A stretch of DNA of 64,000 nucleotides from Escherichia coli. GTDB lineage: Bacteria; Pseudomonadota; Gammaproteobacteria; Enterobacterales; Enterobacteriaceae. The DNA lies in the NCBI RefSeq assembly GCF_044324875.1, contig NZ_CP172185.1; one strand, 5' to 3'. The translations under genes were made by a program, and so were the position numbers. The first letter of the stretch is position 1. Each line of letters begins with the position of its first letter. Below the pieces are notes generated by a model, which worked only from the letters and a program-made list of their open reading frames with translations, was not told where the DNA came from and did no database searches. Below, piece by piece: positions 1 to 37,916 of this stretch.

Positions 1-1932
1 ACCGATACCGCGCCCCAGAGAAAGCAGAGCACCGCCCGGGGAAGTGAACGCAGCCAGCAGACCACCACGCAGCGTACCGAGTAGTCCGCGCACGCCACGA
101 AGCCGGACCGCAAGCCGTCCCGCACCGGTATCAAGACCGGCAAACAGCACACGCCAGCCGCCAATACCACTCATCGACCCACCGAGTACGCCGCGCAGCT
201 GCGTCAGTAACGGCAGCGCACGACCGAGGCCGGATGTGCCGGTCAGCAGGGAAAAGCCAAGACGCAGTTTTGCCAGCGGCCCCAGCAACACGCCGGTAGC
301 CAGTGACAGCGCCCCCGTGGCCGCAACCGCAGCCAGCAGTGCACCACCGGCAATCAGCAGTTGTTTTGTCAGTTCAGGGTGCGCCTGGGCCAGCGCGGTG
401 ACTTTCGCAATAACCCGGGTGAACGACTGCGTGACAGAACGCAGCGGCCCGTCAACGAGGTCAGCGACACGGATACGCAGCCCTTCCCATGCGCTGTTCA
501 GTGATTTCAGGTCGCCGTCCAGGTTGTCCGCCATGATTCTGGCGTTTTCTTCCAGTTCGCCGTTCGCTGCCTGAATCTCACGCGTCAGGCGCGGCAGGTT
601 TTTTTCGCCTGCCTGTTCAACCAGGCTCATCAGGGAGACATACGCCTCCTGCCCGGCAATATCTGAAAAGAACGAGACTTTTGCCGCGTTACCGTATTTA
701 CGGGTGGCCTGATACAGCTCATACAGGATATCTTCCATCGGGCGCATGTTCCCGTAAGCATCCTGCGTTTCCACGCCCAGCTGTTTCAGCGCCTTTGCTG
801 CCGCTTTAGGCGGGTTCACAAGGCGGGACAGACTGGAGCGCAGCGCCGTACCAGCATCACTGCCACGTATCCCCATCGACCCAAGCAACCCGGTCATGGC
901 TGCGGTCTGTTCAAGAGACAGACCGAGTGAGGCGGCGACCGGTCCCGTATATTTCATCGTCTCACCAAGCCCGCGCAGGTCGGTATTGGTGCGGGTGAAC
1001 GTTGCGGCCAGCGTGTCACCCACGCGGTTCATCTGGTCGGCAGACAACCCGAACTGCGTAAGGATATTTGAGCTGATATCGGCCGTCTGACCGAGGTCCA
1101 TGCCGCTGGCCGTTGCCAGATTCAGCACGCCGGGAAGAGCCGCCTGTATCGCCTGCGGCGTGAACCCCGCCATGGCAAGGAACGCCTGACCGCTGGCAGC
1201 ATCACCTGCGGTAAACTGCGTTTCGGAGCCGAGTTTAAGCGCCTGTTCGCGCAGCGCCTTAAACTGCGGACTGTTTTTGTCAATACGGGTCAGCGCCTGG
1301 ACGCGCGACATCTCCTTACCAAAACTGACCGCCGGTTGCAGGAAACGCCCGGCCGCATAGCCACCTGCCGCTGCCGTGCCGACTGCCGTAAATCCACCCG
1401 CTTTCAGTTTTCCCGCCATCTCCTGAGCGCGGAAATATTGCTGGCGTGCCTGCGTGACGCGTGCCAGAGTCTGCCGTTCACGTTCCAGCTGTTCGTTGTA
1501 TTGCTGTGTTCGCCGTATGGCCTGTTGAATGGTGTTGTCACTGCCGGAAAGCGCAATACCGTGACGCCGCAGCTCACCACCCAGTTCGCGCATTCGCTGA
1601 ACTTCACGCGCACGGACCTCATTGAGACGCTCAAGTTTGAGGCTCAAATCGTTCATCAGCTTTTTCTGTTTGTCAGACAGCACGGTTCCGGCGCGCTGAA
1701 TTTGCTGAAGTGCGCTTAACTGGCGTTGTGCCCGGGCAATGCCGTTTCCGGCCTTGTTTGCAGCCTCGCGGGCGCGATCAAATGAACGGGCGTGGCGTTC
1801 CAGGTTTTTGATCGCACCCTGCGTTCTCTGTATGGAGTCGCCAAGCTGGCCCATCATGCGACGGGCGTTTTCGGTGGGACGGGTCAGCCTGTCAACAGCG
1901 CTGAAGGCGACCCGTATATCAAGCGTTTTCAT
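1..1932 (-). CDS. P2-like phage tail tape measure protein (gpT-like), 3' end runs off the window
   Basis: ATG at 1932-1930 on the minus strand. Hand translation of 1621-1932 gives an uninterrupted, coiled-coil-like sequence (MKTLDIRVAFSAVDRLTRPTENARRMMGQLGDSIQ...). Position after E/E' matches P2 F-operon order. The plus-strand ORFs in the track here are antisense artefacts. Confidence 0.75.
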   Translation of the reverse strand, partial: MKTLDIRVAFSAVDRLTRPTENARRMMGQLGDSIQRTQGAIKNLERHARSFDRAREAANKAGNGIARAQRQLSALQQIQRAGTVLSDKQKKLMNDLSLKLERLNEVRAREVQRMRELGGELRRHGIALSGSDNTIQQAIRRTQQYNEQLERERQTLARVTQARQQYFRAQEMAGKLKAGGFTAVGTAAAGGYAAGRFLQPAVSFGKEMSRVQALTRIDKNSPQFKALREQALKLGSETQFTAGDAASGQAFLAMAGFTPQAIQAALPGVLNLATASGMDLGQTADISSNILTQFGLSADQMNRVGDTLAATFTRTNTDLRGLGETMKYTGPVAASLGLSLEQTAAMTGLLGSMGIRGSDAGTALRSSLSRLVNPPKAAAKALKQLGVETQDAYGNMRPMEDILYELYQATRKYGNAAKVSFFSDIAGQEAYVSLMSLVEQAGEKNLPRLTREIQAANGELEENARIMADNLDGDLKSLNSAWEGLRIRVADLVDGPLRSVTQSFTRVIAKVTALAQAHPELTKQLLIAGGALLAAVAATGALSLATGVLLGPLAKLRLGFSLLTGTSGLGRALPLLTQLRGVLGGSMSGIGGWRVLFAGLDTGAGRLAVRLRGVRGLLGTLRGGLLAAFTSPGGALLSLGRGIG

Positions 1933-2082
1933 GCTCTGCGTTCCCGCTGCGAAGGGCCGCCCGCTCACGCCAGGCGACCACCTCGCCGGGATCCATCAGG
2001 AAGATTTCAGCGGGAGACCAGTTGAAAATAACGGCGATATCCGCCACAAAGTCTTCAATATGCTCAAAGGGCACGACGGTTA

Positions 2083-2445
2083 TCAGCCTGCCGTCGCCGC
2101 CACGCTCTTCCCGCCAGAGTCCTGACCGGCCAAAAAATTAACCGCCACCCCGCACAGCTGAATAAAATCAGCGGACCCCATGCGCTTAAGCATAACCTCG
2201 TCCAGTCGCGGCGAAGTGACGCGCGGGAGTAACTCAAACATCGCGTCCGTTTTCATGTTCAGCACGTCAAGCAGTGACAGCCCGCGCAGTGAACCGGCCT
2301 GCTGTACAGCAGGCGTGATTTCCACATACGTGATTTTTTTGTTACCGAGCACAAGGGGTGTTTTCAGTGTCACGCCGCGCTCACTGGTCACGTCAGCCAC
2401 ATCAGCACCGTCAGTAACAGGGGCAACAACCGGATTTTCTTTCAT
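2083..2445 (-). CDS. P2-like tail assembly chaperone gpE; slippery TTTTTTG near the 3' end implies an E+E' frameshift product
   Basis: 120-aa ORF with GAGG ribosome-binding site before ATG 2445. Lies between the tube gene and the tape-measure gene. Heptamer TTTTTTG (minus-strand sense of 2131-2137) is 16 codons before the stop. Confidence 0.7.
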   Translation of the reverse strand: MKENPVVAPVTDGADVADVTSERGVTLKTPLVLGNKKITYVEITPAVQQAGSLRGLSLLDVLNMKTDAMFELLPRVTSPRLDEVMLKRMGSADFIQLCGVAVNFLAGQDSGGKSVAATAG

Positions 2446-2494
2446 GAATAAAACCTCAAATCAGGGGCGACGCCACGCGCCGCCGTGGAAAACA

Positions 2495-3013
2495 TTAACC
2501 ACCAAGACCAATCGCCGAGCGCACGCGGTCCGGGAAGACGCTTTTGCCGTCCTTGCGTTCGATGTGGTTCAGTAAATCAATCTCCAGCACCGGACGGTCG
2601 TTAATGCTGAGTTTGTAGTAGGTACTTTTGACCGCATAGGTGTGAGACGTGACCTCACCCTGTTTGGCCTCCCCGGTATCAATTTCCGTCACGCGACCGC
2701 GAAGCTCAATCTCGTACAGGTCACTCTGTTCTTCATCGTTGTAGTACTCACCGACAAAGCGCAGCAGCGTACCGTCAATCGTGCCGCCGTACTTGAGGAA
2801 CAGTTCGCGGGTCGGCCCGCCCATGGTGAAACTCGCATCCAGCGCGCCGTCATCCAGGCCAAGGTCGATATTTACTGCACCGGCCATACCACCACCGCGA
2901 TAGGCTTCCGTTTTACGGGTCAGTTTGGGGGGCGTGAAGCCGGTCACCCTGCCAATCTGGTTCACCCCGTCAGTAAACAGCGTGAACACCCTGAGATTTT
3001 TTGGTACGGCCAT
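2495..3013 (-). CDS. P2-like tail tube protein (gpFII-like)
   Basis: 172-aa ORF immediately downstream of the sheath gene; its ATG overlaps the sheath stop (TAATG). Size and position fit gpFII. Confidence 0.8.
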   Translation of the reverse strand: MAVPKNLRVFTLFTDGVNQIGRVTGFTPPKLTRKTEAYRGGGMAGAVNIDLGLDDGALDASFTMGGPTRELFLKYGGTIDGTLLRFVGEYYNDEEQSDLYEIELRGRVTEIDTGEAKQGEVTSHTYAVKSTYYKLSINDRPVLEIDLLNHIERKDGKSVFPDRVRSAIGLGG

Positions 3014-4296
3014 TAAGCACCTCCAAGCGTCGCAAATGCAGGACCAAAGAATTCATCAGTAAACGTCTGGTAAAGTTCCATATCCTCAAGCGGCGGAACG
3101 GGCGTGTACTTGTAGCGGATACGCACGCGTCCCTGACGAAGTTCCGTGGTGCTGTTATCCACCACGTCATACCAGCACTCCGCACCAACGAGACGTCCTG
3201 ACGTAACCAGCGCATCCAGTTTTGCGCGAATTGCGCTTAACACGTCTTTCACATTAGCAGGGGTCAGCGGGGCATCAATCGTTTCAAACTGCGCTTCCGC
3301 AACAGAATCAGCCAGCACCTGAGCGGTTCGCGTGTACACCTCAAAGATATACGCCTTCGTTTCCGGCGTACGGTTGCCCCAGAAGCGGAAACCGTTACGG
3401 CGAATGATGGTGGTGATTTCCTTGTTGTTGAGATTGTTGGCATCGCTGTCTTCGGACTGAAGGGACCAGAACACCCGGCTGGAAATACCCAGCACATTTC
3501 TTACCGGCACGTTGGACAGCGATTTATGCCAGCCCTGTTCGTGGTCAATACGTGCACGTAAACCGCAGGCGTACGCCGCAGCCGGGAAGACCTCATTAGC
3601 GCCGGATTTCGGGTTATAGGCGATGAAGTCAGGCCAGAGCAGCATAAGTTCGCGCTCGTTAAATCTGGCGCGGTAGCTGATTGCATCAGCGGGCTTCTTG
3701 CAGTTGTGACAGCCCGCGTAGACAAATGCGCGAAGTTTTTCTGCAATTACACACAGGGATTTTGTGACAGCTTCAGTATCCAGTCCGGGAGCTGCGATGA
3801 TGCGCGGACGGTAACCGATGGCATCATCCTGTTCAGCTATCAGAAGTGCATACATACCGGTATAATTACCGTCGCCATCCGTGCCACCAATGACATACTG
3901 GTCCTGCGTTTTGTGTGGGTATACAGGATGTGCATCTTCAGACTCATCAATACCAAAAAATGCCCTGTCTTCAGGATCCAGATGACCGAATGATGTAACT
4001 CCTGTATCCGGGGCGCCCTGAGAACTGGCATCAGGAACGCGCACCACAATCACCTTCGTGCTCACCTGGTCGGCGACAGCCTTAAGCGATTTGTAAAGCG
4101 TCCCCTTTGTGCCGGCCTTACCCAGCACATCACTGACGCGGGTCAGCAGTGTGGGTTTGTTCAGCGGGAACAGAGTTTCATCCGCGTCATCTGCCGTAGC
4201 CACAATACCAATAACACTGGAATCCACATCATTAATGGCGGTGGCAAGGCCGGTACTTTCCCTTACGCGCGCACCATGAAAGCGTGTTTCACTCAT
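3013..4296 (-). CDS. P2-like contractile tail sheath protein (gpFI-like)
   Basis: Track ORF 3013..4443; the likely true start is ATG 4296 (MSETRFHGARV...), preceded by AGGGTG. 427 aa with conserved sheath motifs (GFRFWGNRT, YTPVPPLE). Confidence 0.8.
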   Translation of the reverse strand: MSETRFHGARVRESTGLATAINDVDSSVIGIVATADDADETLFPLNKPTLLTRVSDVLGKAGTKGTLYKSLKAVADQVSTKVIVVRVPDASSQGAPDTGVTSFGHLDPEDRAFFGIDESEDAHPVYPHKTQDQYVIGGTDGDGNYTGMYALLIAEQDDAIGYRPRIIAAPGLDTEAVTKSLCVIAEKLRAFVYAGCHNCKKPADAISYRARFNERELMLLWPDFIAYNPKSGANEVFPAAAYACGLRARIDHEQGWHKSLSNVPVRNVLGISSRVFWSLQSEDSDANNLNNKEITTIIRRNGFRFWGNRTPETKAYIFEVYTRTAQVLADSVAEAQFETIDAPLTPANVKDVLSAIRAKLDALVTSGRLVGAECWYDVVDNSTTELRQGRVRIRYKYTPVPPLEDMELYQTFTDEFFGPAFATLGGA

Positions 4297-4369
4297 ATGT
4301 TTCACCCTTGTCTGGCTGGTTGATTTTGCGTAATCATTACCCACACACGCGGTAATCTCACCCCTTTGA

Positions 4370-4393
4370 TGTTGTCTCCTGACAGCGACAACA
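4370..4393. promoter_or_regulatory. Ogr/Delta-type late-promoter activator site (TGTTGTC-N10-GACAACA, containing TGT-N12-ACA)
   Basis: Perfect 7-bp inverted repeat with the P2 late-promoter TGT-N12-ACA geometry. Centred about 85 bp upstream of the FI ATG and about 77 bp upstream of the D ATG. Confidence 0.55.
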
Positions 4394-4457
4394 AAACAGC
4401 CATTCAACGCCGCTACGGTGCATGAAACCATTACAGAACGCACCAGGAGAGAACACC

Positions 4458-5549
4458 ATGAAAGAGCTGTCAGTTACCGTTCCGTCACCGGATATCGACA
4501 TCACCATCAACAACAACACACTGGCAAACCTCACAGAGCGACTCATGACGCTGACCCTGACGGATAACCGGGCCTTTGAGGCAGACCGCGTCACCCTCAC
4601 CCTTGACGATACGGACGGGCAGTTACAGTTGCCACCACGTGGCGCACGCCTGAGAGTGATGATTGGCTGGCGCGGGGAGGCGCTGGTTAACAAGGGTGTC
4701 TACATCGTTGATGAAGTGACGTGGGAAGGCCCGCCGGACAAACTGACCATCACCGCCAGCAGCGCCGATTTTCGCGAAGAGTTCAACGTGAAGCGTGAAG
4801 TCTCCTGGCACGACGTGACGGTAAAACAGGTTGTGTCAGCCATCGCGCACCGCTACGGCCTGAAAGCACAGATAAGCGATATCCTCATGGATATCGAAAT
4901 TGACCACGCAGACCAGACCGAAGAGAGTGATATATCCTTCCTGACCCGCATGGCTGAAATGCTGGGTGCGATTGCCACCGTAAAAAACGGCAGCCTGTTA
5001 TTCATTCTGCCGGGTGGCGGAACCGGGCCGGACGGAAAAGCCCTGCCTTCGTTCGCCATTACCCGCAGCAGCGGCGACAGTCACCGCTTTCGCATTGCTG
5101 ACCGTGATGCGTATACGGGGGTCCGGGCGCACTGGCTCGATCTGAAGTTCGGGCAAAAGAAAAAAGTGAACGTGAAGCGACGCAGGGAAGCCGGGAAACA
5201 GAAACAGGAGAAGAGCAGCAGCCGGGAAGGTGATTACATGGAAGGCGCGGAAGGTAACGTCTACGTTCTGCGCAGGACTTACCAGAATGAAGAAACCGCA
5301 CGACGTGCAGCAGCTGCAAAGTGGCAGGAACTACAGCGGGGCGCGGCATCATTCTCCATCACGCTGGCGCGCGGTCGTGCCGACCTGTACCCTGAAATGC
5401 ACGGCAGGGTAACAGGTTTTAAAAGCGAGGTGGACAATCAGGACTGGATTATTGCCAGGGTGGAGCACAGCATAGATGAAAGCGGCTTCACCACACAACT
5501 GGAGCTGGAAGCGAAAATCCCCGAATGGATAGCAGATTCAGGCGGATAA
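4458..5549 (+). CDS. P2-like tail protein D (gpD-like)
   Basis: Track ORF 4422..5549; the ATG at 4458 has an AGGAGA ribosome-binding site. Translation is gpD-like along its length (conserved SWHD, FLTR, DRxAYTGV, AKWxxLQRG, GFTTxLELE). Confidence 0.8.
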   Translation: MKELSVTVPSPDIDITINNNTLANLTERLMTLTLTDNRAFEADRVTLTLDDTDGQLQLPPRGARLRVMIGWRGEALVNKGVYIVDEVTWEGPPDKLTITASSADFREEFNVKREVSWHDVTVKQVVSAIAHRYGLKAQISDILMDIEIDHADQTEESDISFLTRMAEMLGAIATVKNGSLLFILPGGGTGPDGKALPSFAITRSSGDSHRFRIADRDAYTGVRAHWLDLKFGQKKKVNVKRRREAGKQKQEKSSSREGDYMEGAEGNVYVLRRTYQNEETARRAAAAKWQELQRGAASFSITLARGRADLYPEMHGRVTGFKSEVDNQDWIIARVEHSIDESGFTTQLELEAKIPEWIADSGG

Positions 5550-5592
5550 AATTAAAATGAGCCATCTCCACTCAGCCAGATAAGGAGAAGCC

Positions 5593-5844
5593 ATGTTCCG
5601 TTGTCCCCTGTGCGGTGCATCCGCACGTATCCGCACCAGTCGCAATGAAAATGATTCAGGCACAGTTCGCCTGAAGTACTACCAGTGCAATAACCTCGAA
5701 TGCGGGATCGGCTTTACCACACTGGAGGGTTTTAACAAATTCACATCAAAACGCGCCCCGTCGCCGCAGGGTACAGAGCGGATACCGTGGGAAGATTTTC
5801 CGGGATCTCACAGGGGGAATGCTCAGATGAATCTTGATATTTAA
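5593..5844 (+). CDS. ogr: Ogr-family zinc-finger late-gene transcription activator
   Basis: 83 aa. Begins MFRCPLCGASARIRTSRNE with CPLC...C(N)NLEC zinc-finger spacing. AAGGAGA ribosome-binding site. Confidence 0.85.
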   Translation: MFRCPLCGASARIRTSRNENDSGTVRLKYYQCNNLECGIGFTTLEGFNKFTSKRAPSPQGTERIPWEDFPGSHRGNAQMNLDI

Positions 5845-5990
5845 GAACAATAATCAGGTTGAGAGGACATCATAAGGCAAGTAGATTAACGGCAGATACT
5901 TTCCCGCAACCACGGGCAAGTATTTAATTATCCATGATGAAATATGACCTAAATTGTTTTTTGCCCGCCGGAAAGCGGGCATTTTTTTAT
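5845..5990 (+). repeat. Repeat unit A: sequence downstream of ogr ending in an intrinsic terminator (candidate phage right arm plus att core)
   Basis: Shares the core ggttgag...agtagattaac...ttatccatgat...gcccgcc-N-gcgggc-T7 with units B and C. Confidence 0.6.
5963..5988 (+). terminator. Intrinsic terminator, copy 1 (gcccgccggaaagcgggc + T7)
   Basis: GC stem-loop followed by a T-run on the plus strand. Confidence 0.75.
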
Positions 5991-6202
5991 TCTTTTGTGG
6001 TTATGGGGTCATCAGGAACCACGTGCAGATTATATTTTTGTTTTTTTGGCGTTCCTCCGGCAGCAACGAGTTCATCAATAAGACACTGACACGCCTGAAC
6101 ATCCCGGGCATGTCTTAGTTTCACCTTTATTGATTTAACCTTATCCTCACCGGAGGAGAAATGCAGTTCAATCTCAATATCGTTTCTTCGGAACAATCTC
6201 AT
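5987..6202 (-). CDS. Hypothetical small protein (71 aa) in an AT-rich islet
   Basis: ATG at 6202 preceded by a GGGGGG ribosome-binding site. AT-rich promoter-like sequence upstream, with TATAAT-like hexamers. No family recognised by eye. Confidence 0.45.
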   Translation of the reverse strand: MRLFRRNDIEIELHFSSGEDKVKSIKVKLRHARDVQACQCLIDELVAAGGTPKKQKYNLHVVPDDPITTKE

Positions 6203-6429
6203 ACGCCCCCCTGAATATATCAGAAATGCTAGTATCGAAAAATGAGAAAACAGTTAGACAGGAGAAACATATTAACACAAATCATTTATACCTATAGATG
6301 AAATTATAATTTCATTCATGAATATGATAGATAACTATATTGTGAACAAAATGAAAAATGGCTAAATTAAAAATGGGCATGGAGGAATGCCTCGTAATCA
6401 GTAATACATGATCCATACTTCCTTGTTTT

Positions 6430-6455
6430 GCCCGCCGGAAAGCGGGCATTTTTTT
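6430..6455 (+). terminator. Intrinsic terminator, copy 2 (hairpin identical to copy 1)
   Basis: gcccgccggaaagcgggc + T7. Together with copy 1 it forms a near-identical ~30-bp direct repeat flanking the AT-rich islet. Confidence 0.75.
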
Positions 6456-6657
6456 GGCGGTTACCATCGCCTCACCTTCCTGGTTCACACAAAGCAACCC
6501 TGATTTTCCATGAAAACTTCAGGGTTGAGCCAAAAGCACAAAGACAGTAGATTAACCAAGGGTACCCGCCACCTGCCAACAGGAACGGTATCCAGTACGT
6601 ATTAATGACTGACAATTCACATTGCTGTTTTGCCCGCCAGAAGGTGGGCATTTTTTT
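6456..6657 (+). repeat. Repeat unit B: paralogue of units A and C, ending in terminator copy 3
   Basis: Aligns by eye with unit C over about 200 bp. Contains a degenerate ogr 3'-end-like segment (ttcaca...gattttcc). Confidence 0.6.
6632..6657 (+). terminator. Intrinsic terminator, copy 3 (gcccgccagaaggtgggc + T7)
   Basis: GC stem-loop followed by a T-run. Confidence 0.7.
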
Positions 6658-6861
6658 GGCAGTTATCATGGACGCACCTTCATGACACATATTAAGCAGA
6701 CCTGATTTTTCCATGAAAAATTCATGGTTGAGACAAAAGCACAAAAACAGTAGATTAACCACGGGTGCCTGCCACCTGACAACAGGAAGGGGTGTCCATT
6801 ATCCATGATATACAAACGAAAAGTCTTGTCTTTTGCCCGCCGTTGCGCGGGCTTTTTTTTT
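6658..6861 (+). repeat. Repeat unit C: paralogue of units A and B, ending in terminator copy 4
   Basis: Same architecture as unit B. Confidence 0.6.
6835..6861 (+). terminator. Intrinsic terminator, copy 4 (gcccgccgttgcgcgggc + T9)
   Basis: GC stem-loop followed by a T-run. Confidence 0.7.
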
Positions 6862-6890
6862 GCCACCCTCACCAGTGAGGGTACCATCAT

Positions 6891-7112
6891 TCAGAGGCGC
6901 GTAAGCCACCCGGCGTTAACATCCTGCCCGTCAACCCTGACCGCAGAGTCTGAACGGCAGGCACCGGAAGCAGTACCAAAAACACCTCTGACAAGTTCCG
7001 CCACCTTCCCGATATCATCAGGCGCCACATTCCTCACCTCGACAGTGATCCGTGGCGTACCATCATCGTTAACAAGCGTGGCTTTAAGGCTGGTACGACG
7101 GGCAAATAACAT
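6891..7112 (-). CDS. Hypothetical small protein (73 aa)
   Basis: ATG at 7112 with an AGGGAGG ribosome-binding site about 9 nt upstream. GC-rich, between repeat unit C and the copA promoter. No family recognised. Confidence 0.45.
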   Translation of the reverse strand: MLFARRTSLKATLVNDDGTPRITVEVRNVAPDDIGKVAELVRGVFGTASGACRSDSAVRVDGQDVNAGWLTRL

Positions 7113-7172
7113 CAACACCCCCTCCCTTCGGTTCGTTGCACTGGCAGCACGATACCACCAGGAAAAAGAAAA

Positions 7173-7203
7173 GCCCACAACGTCAGGATTGCGGGCTTTT
7201 TTT
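7173..7203 (+). terminator. Intrinsic terminator, copy 5 (gcccacaacgtcaggattgcgggc + T7), related to copies 1-4
   Basis: Stem-loop followed by a T-run, directly upstream of the copA promoter. Confidence 0.65.
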
Positions 7204-7269
7204 CTTCAAAAATGGACACTACGTGGACACTGATTAAATAATCCTTTCTTAATCAGACTGTTAAAATGC

Positions 7270-7300
7270 TTGACCTTCCCCTTGCTGGAAGGTTTAACCT
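7270..7300 (+). promoter_or_regulatory. copA promoter with CueR (MerR-type) operator
   Basis: -35 TTGACC followed by the dyad CCTTCC-N7-GGAAGG within a long spacer, the known PcopA/CueR architecture. Confidence 0.8.
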
Positions 7301-7340
7301 TTATCACAGCCAGTCAAAACTGTCTTAAAAGGAGTGTTTT

Positions 7341-9845
7341 ATGTCACAAACTATCGACCTGACCCTGGACGGCCTGTCCTGCGGTCACTGCGTTAAACGC
7401 GTGAAAGAAAGTCTCGAACAGCGCCCGGATGTTGAGCAGGCGGATGTGTCTGTCACTGAAGCGCACGTTACCGGGACTGCCAGTGCAGAACAGCTGATCG
7501 AAACCATCAAACAAGCGGGTTATGACGCATCTGTAAGCCACCCAAAGGCTAAACCGCTGGCGGAGTCATCAATCCCGTCGGAAGCACTGACAGCGGTTTC
7601 TGAGGCGCTTCCGGCAGCGACCGCCGATGACGATGACAGCCAGCAGTTGCTGCTGAGCGGCATGAGCTGCGCCAGCTGTGTCACCCGCGTACAAAATGCG
7701 TTGCAAAGCGTACCGGGCGTCACTCAGGCACGGGTAAACCTGGCGGAGCGTACTGCGCTGGTGATGGGCAGTGCCTCCCCACAAGATTTAGTGCAGGCGG
7801 TGGAAAAAGCGGGCTACGGCGCGGAAGCGATTGAAGATGACGCTAAACGCCGCGAGCGCCAGCAGGAAACCGCCGTCGCTACGATGAAGCGCTTCCGCTG
7901 GCAGGCAATTGTCGCACTGGCGGTGGGTATCCCGGTGATGGTCTGGGGGATGATCGGCGATAACATGATGGTCACCGCTGACAACCGCAGCTTGTGGTTA
8001 GTTATCGGCCTGATAACCCTGGCAGTGATGGTTTTCGCCGGCGGCCATTTTTACCGTAGTGCATGGAAAAGCCTGCTGAACGGTGCAGCGACGATGGATA
8101 CGCTGGTGGCGCTGGGTACTGGCGTGGCGTGGCTCTATTCGATGAGCGTCAACCTGTGGCCGCAGTGGTTCCCGATGGAAGCGCGACATCTTTATTACGA
8201 AGCCAGCGCGATGATTATCGGTCTGATCAATCTCGGTCATATGCTGGAAGCGCGCGCACGTCAGCGTTCTTCAAAGGCGCTGGAGAAATTACTCGATTTA
8301 ACCCCACCGACGGCGCGCCTGGTCACCGACGAAGGTGAAAAAAGCGTGCCGCTGGCGGAAGTGCAGCCAGGTATGTTGCTGCGCCTGACGACCGGCGATC
8401 GCGTGCCGGTAGATGGCGAGATTACCCAGGGCGAAGCATGGCTGGATGAAGCGATGCTGACGGGCGAACCAATCCCGCAGCAAAAAGGCGAAGGCGATAG
8501 CGTCCATGCCGGGACAGTGGTACAGGACGGCAGTGTGCTGTTTCGTGCCAGTGCGGTCGGCAGCCATACTACGCTGTCACGAATCATTCGCATGGTGCGC
8601 CAGGCCCAGAGCAGCAAGCCTGAAATCGGCCAACTGGCGGATAAAATCTCCGCTGTGTTTGTGCCGGTGGTGGTAGTCATTGCGCTGATCAGTGCGGCAA
8701 TCTGGTATTTCTTTGGTCCGGCACCGCAGATTGTCTATACCCTGGTGATTGCCACCACGGTGCTGATTATCGCCTGTCCGTGTGCGCTGGGACTGGCGAC
8801 GCCGATGTCGATTATTTCGGGCGTCGGGCGGGCGGCTGAGTTTGGTGTGCTGGTGCGGGACGCCGACGCGCTGCAACGCGCCAGTACGCTCGACACCGTG
8901 GTGTTCGATAAAACCGGGACGCTGACCGAAGGGAAGCCGCAGGTTGTCGCAGTAAAAACATTTGCTGATGTTGATGAAGCGCAAGCATTGCGTCTGGCGG
9001 CGGCGCTGGAGCAAGGTTCCAGCCACCCGCTGGCACGGGCGATCCTCGATAAAGCAGGTGATATGCAGCTACCGCAGGTCAACGGTTTCCGCACATTGCG
9101 CGGGCTGGGTGTGAGCGGTGAAGCTGAAGGTCATGCGGTATTGCTGGGCAATCAGGCGCTGTTAAATGACCAGCAAGTTGATACTAAAGCGATTGAGGCA
9201 GATATTTCAGCTCAGGCATCGCAAGGTGCAACGCCTGTGCTGCTGGCGGTTGACGGGAAAGCGGTAGCCCTGCTGGCTGTACGCGATCCGTTGCGTAGTG
9301 ATAGCGTGGCGGCGCTGCAACGCCTGCATAAAGCGGGATATCGTCTGGTGATGTTGACCGGGGATAACCCAACCACCGCCAATGCGATCGCCAAAGAAGC
9401 AGGGATTGATGAGGTGATAGCCGGCGTGCTGCCGGACGGTAAAGCCGAAGCGATCAAACGTCTTCAAAGTGAAGGACGTCAGGTGGCAATGGTGGGCGAC
9501 GGCATTAACGATGCGCCAGCGCTGGCTCAGGCGGATGTCGGTATTGCGATGGGTGGCGGCAGTGATGTTGCCATTGAAACCGCGGCGATTACCCTGATGC
9601 GCCATAGCCTGATGGGTGTTGCAGATGCGCTCGCGATTTCCCGCGCAACGCTGCGCAATATGAAGCAGAACCTGCTCGGTGCGTTTATCTACAACAGCAT
9701 TGGTATTCCGGTCGCCGCCGGTATTTTGTGGCCGTTCACTGGAACACTGCTTAACCCGGTGGTTGCCGGAGCGGCAATGGCGCTCTCGTCGATTACCGTA
9801 GTGAGTAACGCCAACCGGTTACTGCGGTTTAAACCGAAAGAGTGA
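7341..9845 (+). CDS. copA: Cu(I)-translocating P-type ATPase
   Basis: 834 aa. Two N-terminal CxxC metal-binding domains, CPC motif, DKTGT phosphorylation site. Confidence 0.97.
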
Positions 9846-33843: not shown

Positions 33844-36996
<3,153 letters not shown>

Positions 36997-37014
36997 TACA
37001 ACGTGTAATCACTA

Positions 37015-37038
37015 AGGCCGCGCAAGCGGCCTTTTTTA
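37015..37038 (+). terminator. Intrinsic terminator after acrB
   Basis: aaggccgcgcaagcggcc + T6. Confidence 0.7.
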
Positions 37039-37541
37039 TGCATAACCGACGAACATTAAGGAGTCATTGAACCACCAACTCAGGATCTCATACGAAAACC
37101 AGTATTAACCTCGCATAAAATTCATAAAAAATACTGATTGTTAGTTAATTTATATTAAGTAGCGCTAATAGATTTAATAATCCATAATCATTTAGAGGCT
37201 ATTCTTAATTATTTGCGGTAATTCTTTATTCATTCCTCGGTTATTACGTCATATTCAGAGCAATCCTGGTATTAGTGTCACCAATTTCATCTGGCGATAA
37301 TCCTGAAATGTTATGAATAGTTCGAGCAGACTGCTTTTACCTGCTGCGGGTTAGTGCTAGTATGAAAAAATGAGTCCTGTCCCGCTTCCTTCCTAATTGT
37401 AATTTTTCGTAATAATGCGATGAAAACCTGCAAAGAGTGGCTTATAGTTAAGCTAACAAACGAGAGGGCAAGTCCAGGTCAGTAAGTTTTTTCCATCCCG
37501 AAAGGTGTCCGTTAGTTCAACCACTAAGAAGGGGACGCGTT

Positions 37542-37916
37542 ATGGATGAATACTCACCCAAAAGACATGATATCGCACAGCTTAAGTTTCTCTGTGAAAC
37601 CCTGTATCATGACTGTCTTGCAAACCTTGAAGAAAGCAATCATGGCTGGGTTAACGACCCAACCTCGGCGATCAACCTCCAGTTGAATGAACTGATTGAG
37701 CATATTGCGACCTTCGCACTTAATTACAAAATTAAGTATAATGAAGACAATAAGCTCATTGAGCAGATCGACGAATATCTGGATGACACCTTTATGTTGT
37801 TCAGCAGTTATGGTATTAATATGCAGGATCTTCAGAAATGGCGGAAGTCAGGTAATCGACTATTCCGTTGTTTTGTCAATGCGACGAAAGAGAATCCTGC
37901 GAGTTTATCTTGTTAG
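37542..37916 (+). CDS. tomB: Hha toxicity modulator TomB
   Basis: 124 aa, immediately upstream of hha. Confidence 0.93.

Follow-up and report, generated by a model that had tools for sequence, protein, structure and literature searches.

Prophages are known to carry Hfq-type small RNAs (sRNAs) as paralogous copies, among them the anti-sRNAs AgvB and AsxR of lambdoid prophages in enterohaemorrhagic Escherichia coli, DicF and IpeX. Prophages also carry small accessory genes ('morons'), which in P2 are found between gpA and gpQ (tin/old) and among the tail genes (Z/fun), and in the satellite P4 between psu and int. Of these, gpA–gpQ and psu–int are the classical accessory hotspots (PMC9122126), and a recent survey with more than 1500 P2-like prophages names the interval between primase and att as a minor defence hotspot (10.64898/2026.02.27.708500). 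Here we report the analysis of an AT-rich islet (positions 5989–6425) with a minus-strand open reading frame (ORF) of 71 codons, ORF71, which lies in a P2-like prophage of Escherichia coli. The islet was studied within a stretch of 64,000 nucleotides of contig NZ_CP172185.1 (assembly GCF_044324875.1), which is referred to below as the window.

The islet is a prophage accessory cassette, and thus of a kind already known, which here contains a truncated member of a syntenically conserved P2/P4 protein family. It is likely that it represents a moron-type cargo cassette, with ORF71 in truncated form and an array of promoter–hairpin–terminator units, located in the variable ogr–attP arm of a P2-like E. 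coli prophage that is rare and has the copA promoter as its integration site. The islet is located between ogr and attR, the content of this arm varies among sibling phages, and the base composition is deviant, all of which are marks of a moron. The first-pass annotation of this DNA had already proposed a moron-type cargo gene, and that proposal is upheld by the foreign composition and by the use of the same slot by homologues in other P2-like phages.

The islet in the ogr–attP arm

The islet has a G + C content of 36.4%, and equally low values occur in only 0.3% of the 437-bp windows across the 64 kb (mean 52.3%, standard deviation 4.4), which confirms the AT-rich segment noticed at first pass. 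Within the islet, ORF71 has 41.7% and the non-coding part (6203–6425) 30.9%. The surroundings are much richer in G + C (phage DNA at 5000–5844, 54.6%; flanking phage genes, 54.6–56.5%; copA, 58.4%), and the arm from ogr to attR (5845–7268) as a whole is already low, at 44%. The sole other stretch of the window that is as AT-rich as the islet (29–31% G + C, approximately 37000–37500) is intergenic, follows an acrB-like ORF (33847–36996), and is followed by an ORF (37542–37916) that we take to encode TomB; this stretch is apparently ordinary DNA of the host.

Positions 1–7268 of the window belong to a P2-like prophage of about 35 kb and form its right end. Tail tube and sheath genes, gpD (4422–5549) and ogr lie to the left of the islet, and ogr and ORF71 are convergent. 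The other boundary of the arm is given by a comparison with 5426 complete E. coli genomes, of which 5422 match the stretch 6861–7340 only from about position 7269 on. In the sibling genome NZ_CP100500.1 (strain LH50-c; locus L005, with the 20-mer at 8671–8690), whose junction is identical to that of the window, the 20-mer CTTGACCTTCCCCTTGCTGG has one copy at the integrase beside glsA and one at the equivalent of window positions 7269–7288. This 20-mer is the true att core of the prophage and lies in the copA promoter, where it overlaps the −35 hexamer of copA and half of the CueR operator dyad. The promoter is complete again at attR, 50 bp 5' of the copA start codon, and the insertion is present in 5 of the 5426 genomes.

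Because the att core is the 20-mer at 7269–7288, the islet lies within the prophage, at a depth of about 0.8 kb. Two units of about 200 bp (U2 and U3, described below), a small ORF and a terminator separate it from the junction. The distance from the start of ORF71 (6202) to the attR core is about 1.07 kb and comprises three units and one ORF; the gene therefore does not sit at a phage/att junction, as had been thought.

The phage lineage is rare: 30 of the 5426 complete E. coli genomes contain it, and most of these are from poultry. Searches of 50,697 phage records gave no match, either with the whole arm (blastn) or with the ORF71 protein (tblastn), and the 91 matches of the unit-promoter pattern in 100,044 species genomes were all due to chance, as none was aligned to the arm by blastn. 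The succession of ogr, the first unit (U1), islet and further units is present at three chromosomal sites (copA–glsA, ihfA and serS), and the DNA past the last unit differs by site, with a second small ORF (ORFx) at copA–glsA, hicBA at ihfA and hok/sok at serS. At serS, hok/sok is located between a unit and an ORFx-like module, and thus inside the arm; hicBA adjoins the arm at ihfA and is a candidate for phage cargo only. The islet adjoins U1 at every U1 locus, i.e., in 30 genomes, three IMG/VR contigs and three metagenome contigs. None of these 36 related loci has an empty site or an arm that lacks the islet.

Three forms of variant islet were found. In variant (a), ORF71 has the exchange R5H and is preceded by a canonical AGGAGG seven nucleotides before the start codon, the upstream region is 70–76% identical to that of the window, and the terminator on the right-hand side has a different loop (GAAGCA against GGAAAG). 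Variant (b) is a second islet in one arm, with deletions of 8 bp and 2 bp in ORF71 and a right-hand part (Ui, see below) that is 91% identical. Variant (c), from a prophage remnant at serS, is a copy in which ORF71 breaks off after 24 codons. In a metagenome contig (L110), the islet is also duplicated. A block of 27 bp with the imperfect palindrome CATTTATA-CC-TATAGATG is identical at 27 of 27 positions in the window and variant (a) and differs by one base in variant (b), amid nearby non-coding DNA with 70–76% identity. No second copy of the palindrome was detected in the prophage, including the early operator region of the phage; from its sequence, the block looks like a candidate operator, e.g., for a dimeric regulator.

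The serS locus of NZ_CP100530.1 (L003, 4800–7700) contains a 'graveyard' of a second related arm downstream of the resident arm, which is nearly unannotated in RefSeq. It comprises a truncated ORF71, a frameshifted ORF71 islet, four units, an intact hok, a decayed hok-like stretch and an ORFx-like module. Since the same succession is contiguous with ogr in L110, it represents an alternative intact layout of the arm.

Terminator-bearing units

The islet is bracketed by two copies of the 30-mer TTTTGCCCGCCGGAAAGCGGGCATTTTTTT (5959–5988 and 6426–6455), which are identical at 30 of 30 positions. With a 'ttg' lead-in, the repeats extend over 5954–5988 and 6423–6455 and differ by two T; the near-identical direct repeats of about 30 bp recorded in the first-pass annotation are thus real, with the start of the right-hand copy corrected from 6424 to 6423. 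Two more copies are present at 6628–6657 (90% identity) and 6831–6860 (83%), and all four consist of a hairpin and a T-run in the orientation of a plus-strand terminator. The bracketing repeats, which had been read as a duplicated att core, are two of four periodic copies. Judged by their sequence, the copies are Rho-independent terminators, each of which closes a predicted promoter–hairpin–terminator unit (U1, Ui, U2 and U3; Table 1). The terminator of U1 probably also ends the ogr transcript, and the stop codon of ORF71 lies inside its T-run.

The promoter hexamers of the units were detected as sigma-70-like in a consensus scan. In seven units (window and sibling locus), the arrangement TTGAG(A/C)-N17-TAGATT is invariant, whereas the spacer and the transcribed body are variable. 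With the transcription start set about 7 nucleotides after the −10 hexamer and the end at the T-run, the putative RNAs of U1, U2 and U3 have a length of 96–99 nucleotides, and their predicted fold consists of a 5' hairpin, an AU-rich single strand of about 35 nucleotides and the terminator hairpin. The putative U1 RNA, with its 5' hairpin and AU-rich single strand, has a folding energy of −27.8 kcal/mol (z = −3.7); the z-scores are −2.4 for U2, −2.1 for Ui and −0.55 for U3. U2 and U3 are 80–89% alike, and U1 has the same framework, with a 5' hairpin that is similar in size and unrelated in sequence. The islet ends on the right with Ui, a fourth, diverged unit whose promoter is kept in a variant islet as TTGTGA-17-TAGATT. 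Homology with sibling phages at other chromosomal sites stops at the end of U3.

In silico, the units have the anatomy of Hfq-type sRNA genes (promoter, 5' structure, single-stranded seed and U-tailed terminator), and we infer from this anatomy and from the pattern of conservation that they may be RNA genes. A literature search for sRNAs near ogr returned nothing relevant. Candidate assignments in Rfam to Trp_leader/Hrs1 (5888–5988 and 6402–6455) and Thr_leader (7085–7239, both strands) were rejected, as they were far below threshold and due to the terminator hairpins only. The inverted repeat TGATTTTC-CAT-GAAAACTTCA is located directly 5' of the −35 hexamer in U2, U3 and the units of sibling phages, and could be the site of a regulator. 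The Ogr/Delta late-promoter motif is TGT-N12-ACA, and the inverted repeat of U2 and U3 does not fit it.

ORF71 and its protein family

The minus-strand ORF of 71 codons is present with the sequence first given, and the GGGGGG ribosome-binding site ascribed to it is matched by a run of six G three nucleotides from the start codon. In all loci, it is annotated as a hypothetical protein. It had been described as an orphan that matches no recognisable family, and this has to be revised. ORF71 is a member of PHROG 14142 (E = 4.9e-12), with distant homologues of about 128 amino acids in other P2-like prophages, and covers positions 72–127 of the 128 profile positions only. A phmmer search of 1.84 billion representative proteins aligned it with residues 72–124 of two proteins of 128–133 amino acids (P0009, E = 2.8e-5, and P0011), and a short form of 57 amino acids (P0010) was also matched. 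A word-indexed search with P0009 yielded about 40 members of the family from Salmonella, Citrobacter, Enterobacter, Klebsiella, Yersinia, Pectobacterium and other genera, all annotated as 'hypothetical'.

In the alignment, the first residue of ORF71 corresponds to an invariant methionine of the family, Met72 (…IMGLLNRNDVEIEL…). Identity to the family is 35–50% over the common stretch of about 55 residues, and the tail past residue 55 or so (16 residues) is non-homologous. There is no N-terminal extension of the frame, with stop codons in all three upstream frames. The full-length architecture of about 128 amino acids (beta-alpha-beta-beta-alpha-beta-beta-alpha-beta) is not present in ORF71, which lacks the N-terminal 71 residues (beta-alpha-beta-beta-alpha). 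AlphaFold models a full-length homologue as one compact alpha/beta domain (predicted local distance difference test, pLDDT, 72; predicted template modelling score, pTM, 0.69). ORF71 is hydrophilic, with a grand average of hydropathy (GRAVY) of −0.58 and a best 15-residue hydropathy window of 1.1, and lacks a membrane segment. Met72 is present without exception in the 36 full-length members, where purine-rich stretches precede it; internal initiation at this codon within full-length genes is a possibility suggested by the sequences.

Database searches provided no match to a described function. Pfam gave nothing for ORF71 or the family alignment, PADLOC-DB nothing at E ≤ 1 for ORF71, P0009, P0010 and P0011, and NCBIfam, including its toxin–antitoxin models, no match for ORF71. 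A sequence-profile search of the PDB returned noise only (E > 0.04), and fold searches gave no functional clue for ORF71. The notion that the site hosts toxin–antitoxin parts and similar factors is supported by the sibling arms, which contain hok/sok and in one case are adjoined by hicAB, but does not extend to ORF71, which has no match among toxin–antitoxin and defence models.

The position of the gene is conserved together with the protein. In Klebsiella and Raoultella prophages and in another P2-like phage, the gene of 128–133 codons comes last before the junction with host DNA and, like ORF71, converges with ogr. It is also the terminal gene in prophages of Salmonella and Citrobacter, where it adjoins a host gene, sometimes with hok alongside. 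The 128-codon homologues lie by themselves between two terminators, and no RNA unit is near. The short form P0010 follows the primase gene in P4-like satellites, between primase and contig end, in the interval cited above as a minor defence hotspot, and was found in at least ten P4-like contigs. The frame upstream of this 57-codon ORF (L010, 6001–6174) still reads …TQTRKPMRSG, where the family has …ATQARKLAGVI. Because these in-frame relic codons remain upstream, the 57-residue form is, on the sequence comparison, an independent N-terminal truncation of the 128-residue family.

Table 1. Features of the arm between ogr and the chromosomal junction (window coordinates).
Feature	Position	Strand	Description
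ogr/Delta-type zinc-finger late activator	5593–5844	+	Last core gene of the P2-like prophage; ORF with ogr/Delta annotation in identical E. coli loci
U1	5857–5988	+	TTGAGA-17-TAGATT at 5859–5887; putative RNA of ~96 nucleotides (~5893–5988); terminator 5962–5988 (left repeat)
ORF71 (WP_001236182.1, 71 amino acids)	5987–6202	−	Homologous to the C-terminal half of the ~128-residue PHROG 14142 family
G6 Shine–Dalgarno-like run	6206–6211	−	3 nucleotides before the ORF71 ATG; replaced by AGGAGG-7 nt-ATG in variant islets
27-bp block with imperfect palindrome CATTTATA-CC-TATAGATG	6279–6305		AT-rich divergent control region
Ui	6340–6455	+	TTGTGA-17-TAAATT at 6340–6368; putative RNA of ~81 nucleotides (~6375–6455); terminator 6429–6455 (right repeat)
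U2	6456–6657	+	Inverted repeat 6501–6521; TTGAGC-17-TAGATT at 6525–6553; putative RNA of ~99 nucleotides (~6559–6657); terminator 6631–6657
U3	6658–6860	+	Inverted repeat 6704–6724; TTGAGA-17-TAGATT at 6728–6756; putative RNA of ~99 nucleotides (~6762–6860); terminator 6835–6860
ORFx (WP_029400554.1, 73 amino acids)	6891–7112	−	Second small hypothetical gene of the arm; alternative GTG start at 7178
Terminator hairpin, apparently bidirectional	7169–7200		Between ORFx and attR
attR core CTTGACCTTCCCCTTGCTGG	7269–7288		Prophage/chromosome junction in the copA promoter; core E. coli DNA starts here

ORFx has homologues in E. coli only, and the serS arm is closed by a homologous module. It gave no significant PHROG match, and its candidacy as a distant paralogue of ORF71 was rejected (hhalign probability 0.1). 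Direct repeats of TGGACA(C/T) occur near attR (7213–7230) and, in the sibling genome, near attL and int (L005, approximately 8780–8805); they are plausibly arm-type binding sites of the integrase. The tape-measure gene of NZ_CP100500.1 (L005, 34949–38482) is annotated in RefSeq as incomplete, with the C-terminus missing, and adjoins about 1.7 kb of unannotated DNA; on the strength of this annotation, the prophage in that genome may be defective. The first base of the window falls within the tape-measure gene.

Interpretation of the cassette

On the directly observed position, anatomy, homology, synteny and mosaicism we base the following model. The arm is a string of paralogous units of about 100–200 bp (U1, Ui, U2 and U3), in which modules are set apart by terminator-bearing units. 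ORF71 on the minus strand and Ui on the plus strand diverge around an AT-rich control region with one strictly conserved palindrome, and the cassette would be transcribed by itself in the lysogen. The repeated terminators would insulate the modules from read-through of ogr and late transcription and from one another, and would offer homology through which recombination could shuffle and duplicate cargo (the ORF71 islet and hok/sok) among related phages. The identity of the two flanking 30-mers is best explained by the homology of the U1 and Ui terminators, via gene conversion or recent recombination. ORF71 would probably be translated as a small soluble beta-hairpin-helix protein, which may bind a partner in the conflict between phage and host or between phages and satellites.

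Two other explanations of the islet as a whole were considered. The first-pass annotation had regarded it as a small integrative element inserted into, and duplicating, an att core of about 30 bp, which would account for two perfectly identical copies that bracket an AT-rich segment. Yet the repeat is present four times at a spacing of about 200 bp and is a terminator hairpin with a T-run, and its right-hand copy has another loop in variant islets. There is also no recombinase gene among the ORFs of the islet, no empty site in the 36 related loci, and the real att core is a different sequence, so that this explanation is very improbable. No greater weight can be given to a type I or antisense-RNA toxin–antitoxin system, in which ORF71 would be the toxin and the RNA of the convergent U1 or the divergent Ui the antitoxin. 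A hydrophilic protein without a membrane segment (GRAVY −0.58) does not fit such a toxin, the 128-residue homologues are soluble alpha/beta proteins encoded between two terminators with no unit near, and no toxin–antitoxin model of PADLOC or NCBIfam was matched; these findings outweigh the overlap of the U1 terminator with the 3' end of the convergent ORF71 and the presence of a genuine type I module (hok/sok) in the same arm of sibling phages.

The preferred reading, a cargo cassette with a probable protein product and candidate RNA units, has to be held against a number of results that weigh against it, and two further alternatives draw on them. According to one, ORF71 is the dead remnant of an att-proximal gene for 128 residues that has lost its 5' half, and any selection on the islet concerns the terminators, the palindrome or Ui. 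ORF71 lacks half of the fold and covers profile positions 72–127 of 128 only, and all frames upstream contain stops. Modelled alone, ORF71 gives a structure of low confidence (pLDDT 64), and its 3' tail is non-homologous and variable, with protein P0003 ending at 57 residues. In second copies of the islet, the ORF is frameshifted or truncated, and in duplicated islets it decays (80% identity, 10 gap columns) in comparison with the Ui part (91%). The region upstream of ORF71 is AT-rich, as stated in the first-pass annotation, but the TATAAT-like hexamers pointed out there are weak, and a consensus scan of 6203–6340 found no minus-strand promoter at its threshold; nor did a scan find a minus-strand terminator after ORF71. 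The protein is identical in 30 of 30 complete genomes, and purifying selection is consequently not measurable, while the near-complete identity of the ORF71 body (~100%) to the variant against 70–76% for the upstream DNA is as compatible with a recombination junction as with selection. On the other hand, the frame begins exactly at the invariant Met72, a Shine–Dalgarno sequence is supplied by two different upstream contexts, all primary islets seen have an undamaged ORF, and the independently truncated form persists in P4-like contigs. These four points argue for function, and we consider a dead remnant rather unlikely, if by no means negligible.

According to the other alternative, the units of about 200 bp are not RNA genes but empty promoter/terminator relics of former morons, or stacked terminators that keep ogr/late transcription out of host genes, in either case multiplied by recombination. 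Covariance-model scores of all units remained below the gathering threshold of every Rfam family. Targets were sought, by exact 11-mers and by RNAduplex, in the translation-initiation regions of the 48 genes annotated in the sibling locus, and none scored above shuffled sequences; complementarity to the unit RNAs in the prophage and the window did not exceed background. Covariation is weak, with one clear compensatory pair in an automatic alignment in which the U1 hairpin is misaligned. Moreover, U3 folds no better than shuffled sequence, and the units were seen in this lineage of phages only (30 of the 5426 E. coli genomes, with none in the phage collection or the 100,044 species genomes). 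Against this stands the constancy of the promoter hexamers and their 17-nucleotide spacing while the spacer sequence changes, the 5' hairpin that U1 retains despite a different sequence, and the inverted repeat conserved 5' of U2 and U3; such conservation is unlike that of neutral relics. Empty units are accordingly a substantial minority possibility, though we do not favour them.

Within the likely reading of the islet as a moron-type cassette, a more ambitious proposal can be made only tentatively, and taken as a whole it is rather doubtful. It holds jointly that the arm encodes a new tandem family of paralogous phage sRNAs with conserved promoters and variable seeds, that the islet is a protein-plus-sRNA module controlled divergently by a single conserved palindromic operator, and that ORF71 is a functional minimal form of a widespread att-proximal P2/P4 accessory protein engaged in inter-element conflict.

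Compared with the described systems, the islet resembles the morons of the P2 slots and of psu–int in P4 in being a terminator-flanked, AT-rich, foreign small gene with content variable among siblings. It differs in its slot, as ogr–attP is not among the hotspots named in the available portions of the P2/P4 papers, and in the absence of a match to known defence or anti-defence models. With the PHROG 14142 family (P0009 of Salmonella, P0046 of Klebsiella/Raoultella, and P0011), ORF71 shares the orientation and the att-proximal slot convergent with ogr, but it lacks the N-terminal 71 residues, has a tail of 16 residues of its own, and is embedded in an sRNA-like array that the other phages lack. 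The putative RNA units are like AgvB/AsxR, DicF and IpeX in that each is short and has a promoter of its own, a 5' hairpin, a single strand rich in AU, and a terminator with at least seven U, and in that several diverged paralogues occur in accessory DNA; they differ in belonging to a P2-like instead of a lambdoid phage and in having no Rfam match. In sibling phages, the hok/sok module shares the ogr–attP arm and immediately follows the terminator of a unit, and hok lies beside the 128-residue homologue in Salmonella prophages, but ORF71 is not a Hok-like hydrophobic peptide, and the islet lacks a mok/sok architecture.

The main value of this study is corrective, in that it places attR in the copA/CueR promoter, recognises four terminators instead of two, and assigns the supposed orphan gene to a family of which it is a truncated member. 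It also draws attention to a conserved uncharacterised family whose genes lie at the very att-proximal end of P2-like prophages and also occur in P4-like satellites, throughout the Enterobacteriaceae, and to the ogr–attP arm as a cargo slot that also holds toxin–antitoxin modules. The array of sRNA-like units, which is unannotated and absent from Rfam, is the sole element that could prove new; were its units expressed, a P2-like phage would provide a new example of regulatory RNAs borne by phages. A role in exclusion or anti-defence, should ORF71 or the full-length proteins have one, would add a further family to the repertoire of the conflict between P2 and P4.

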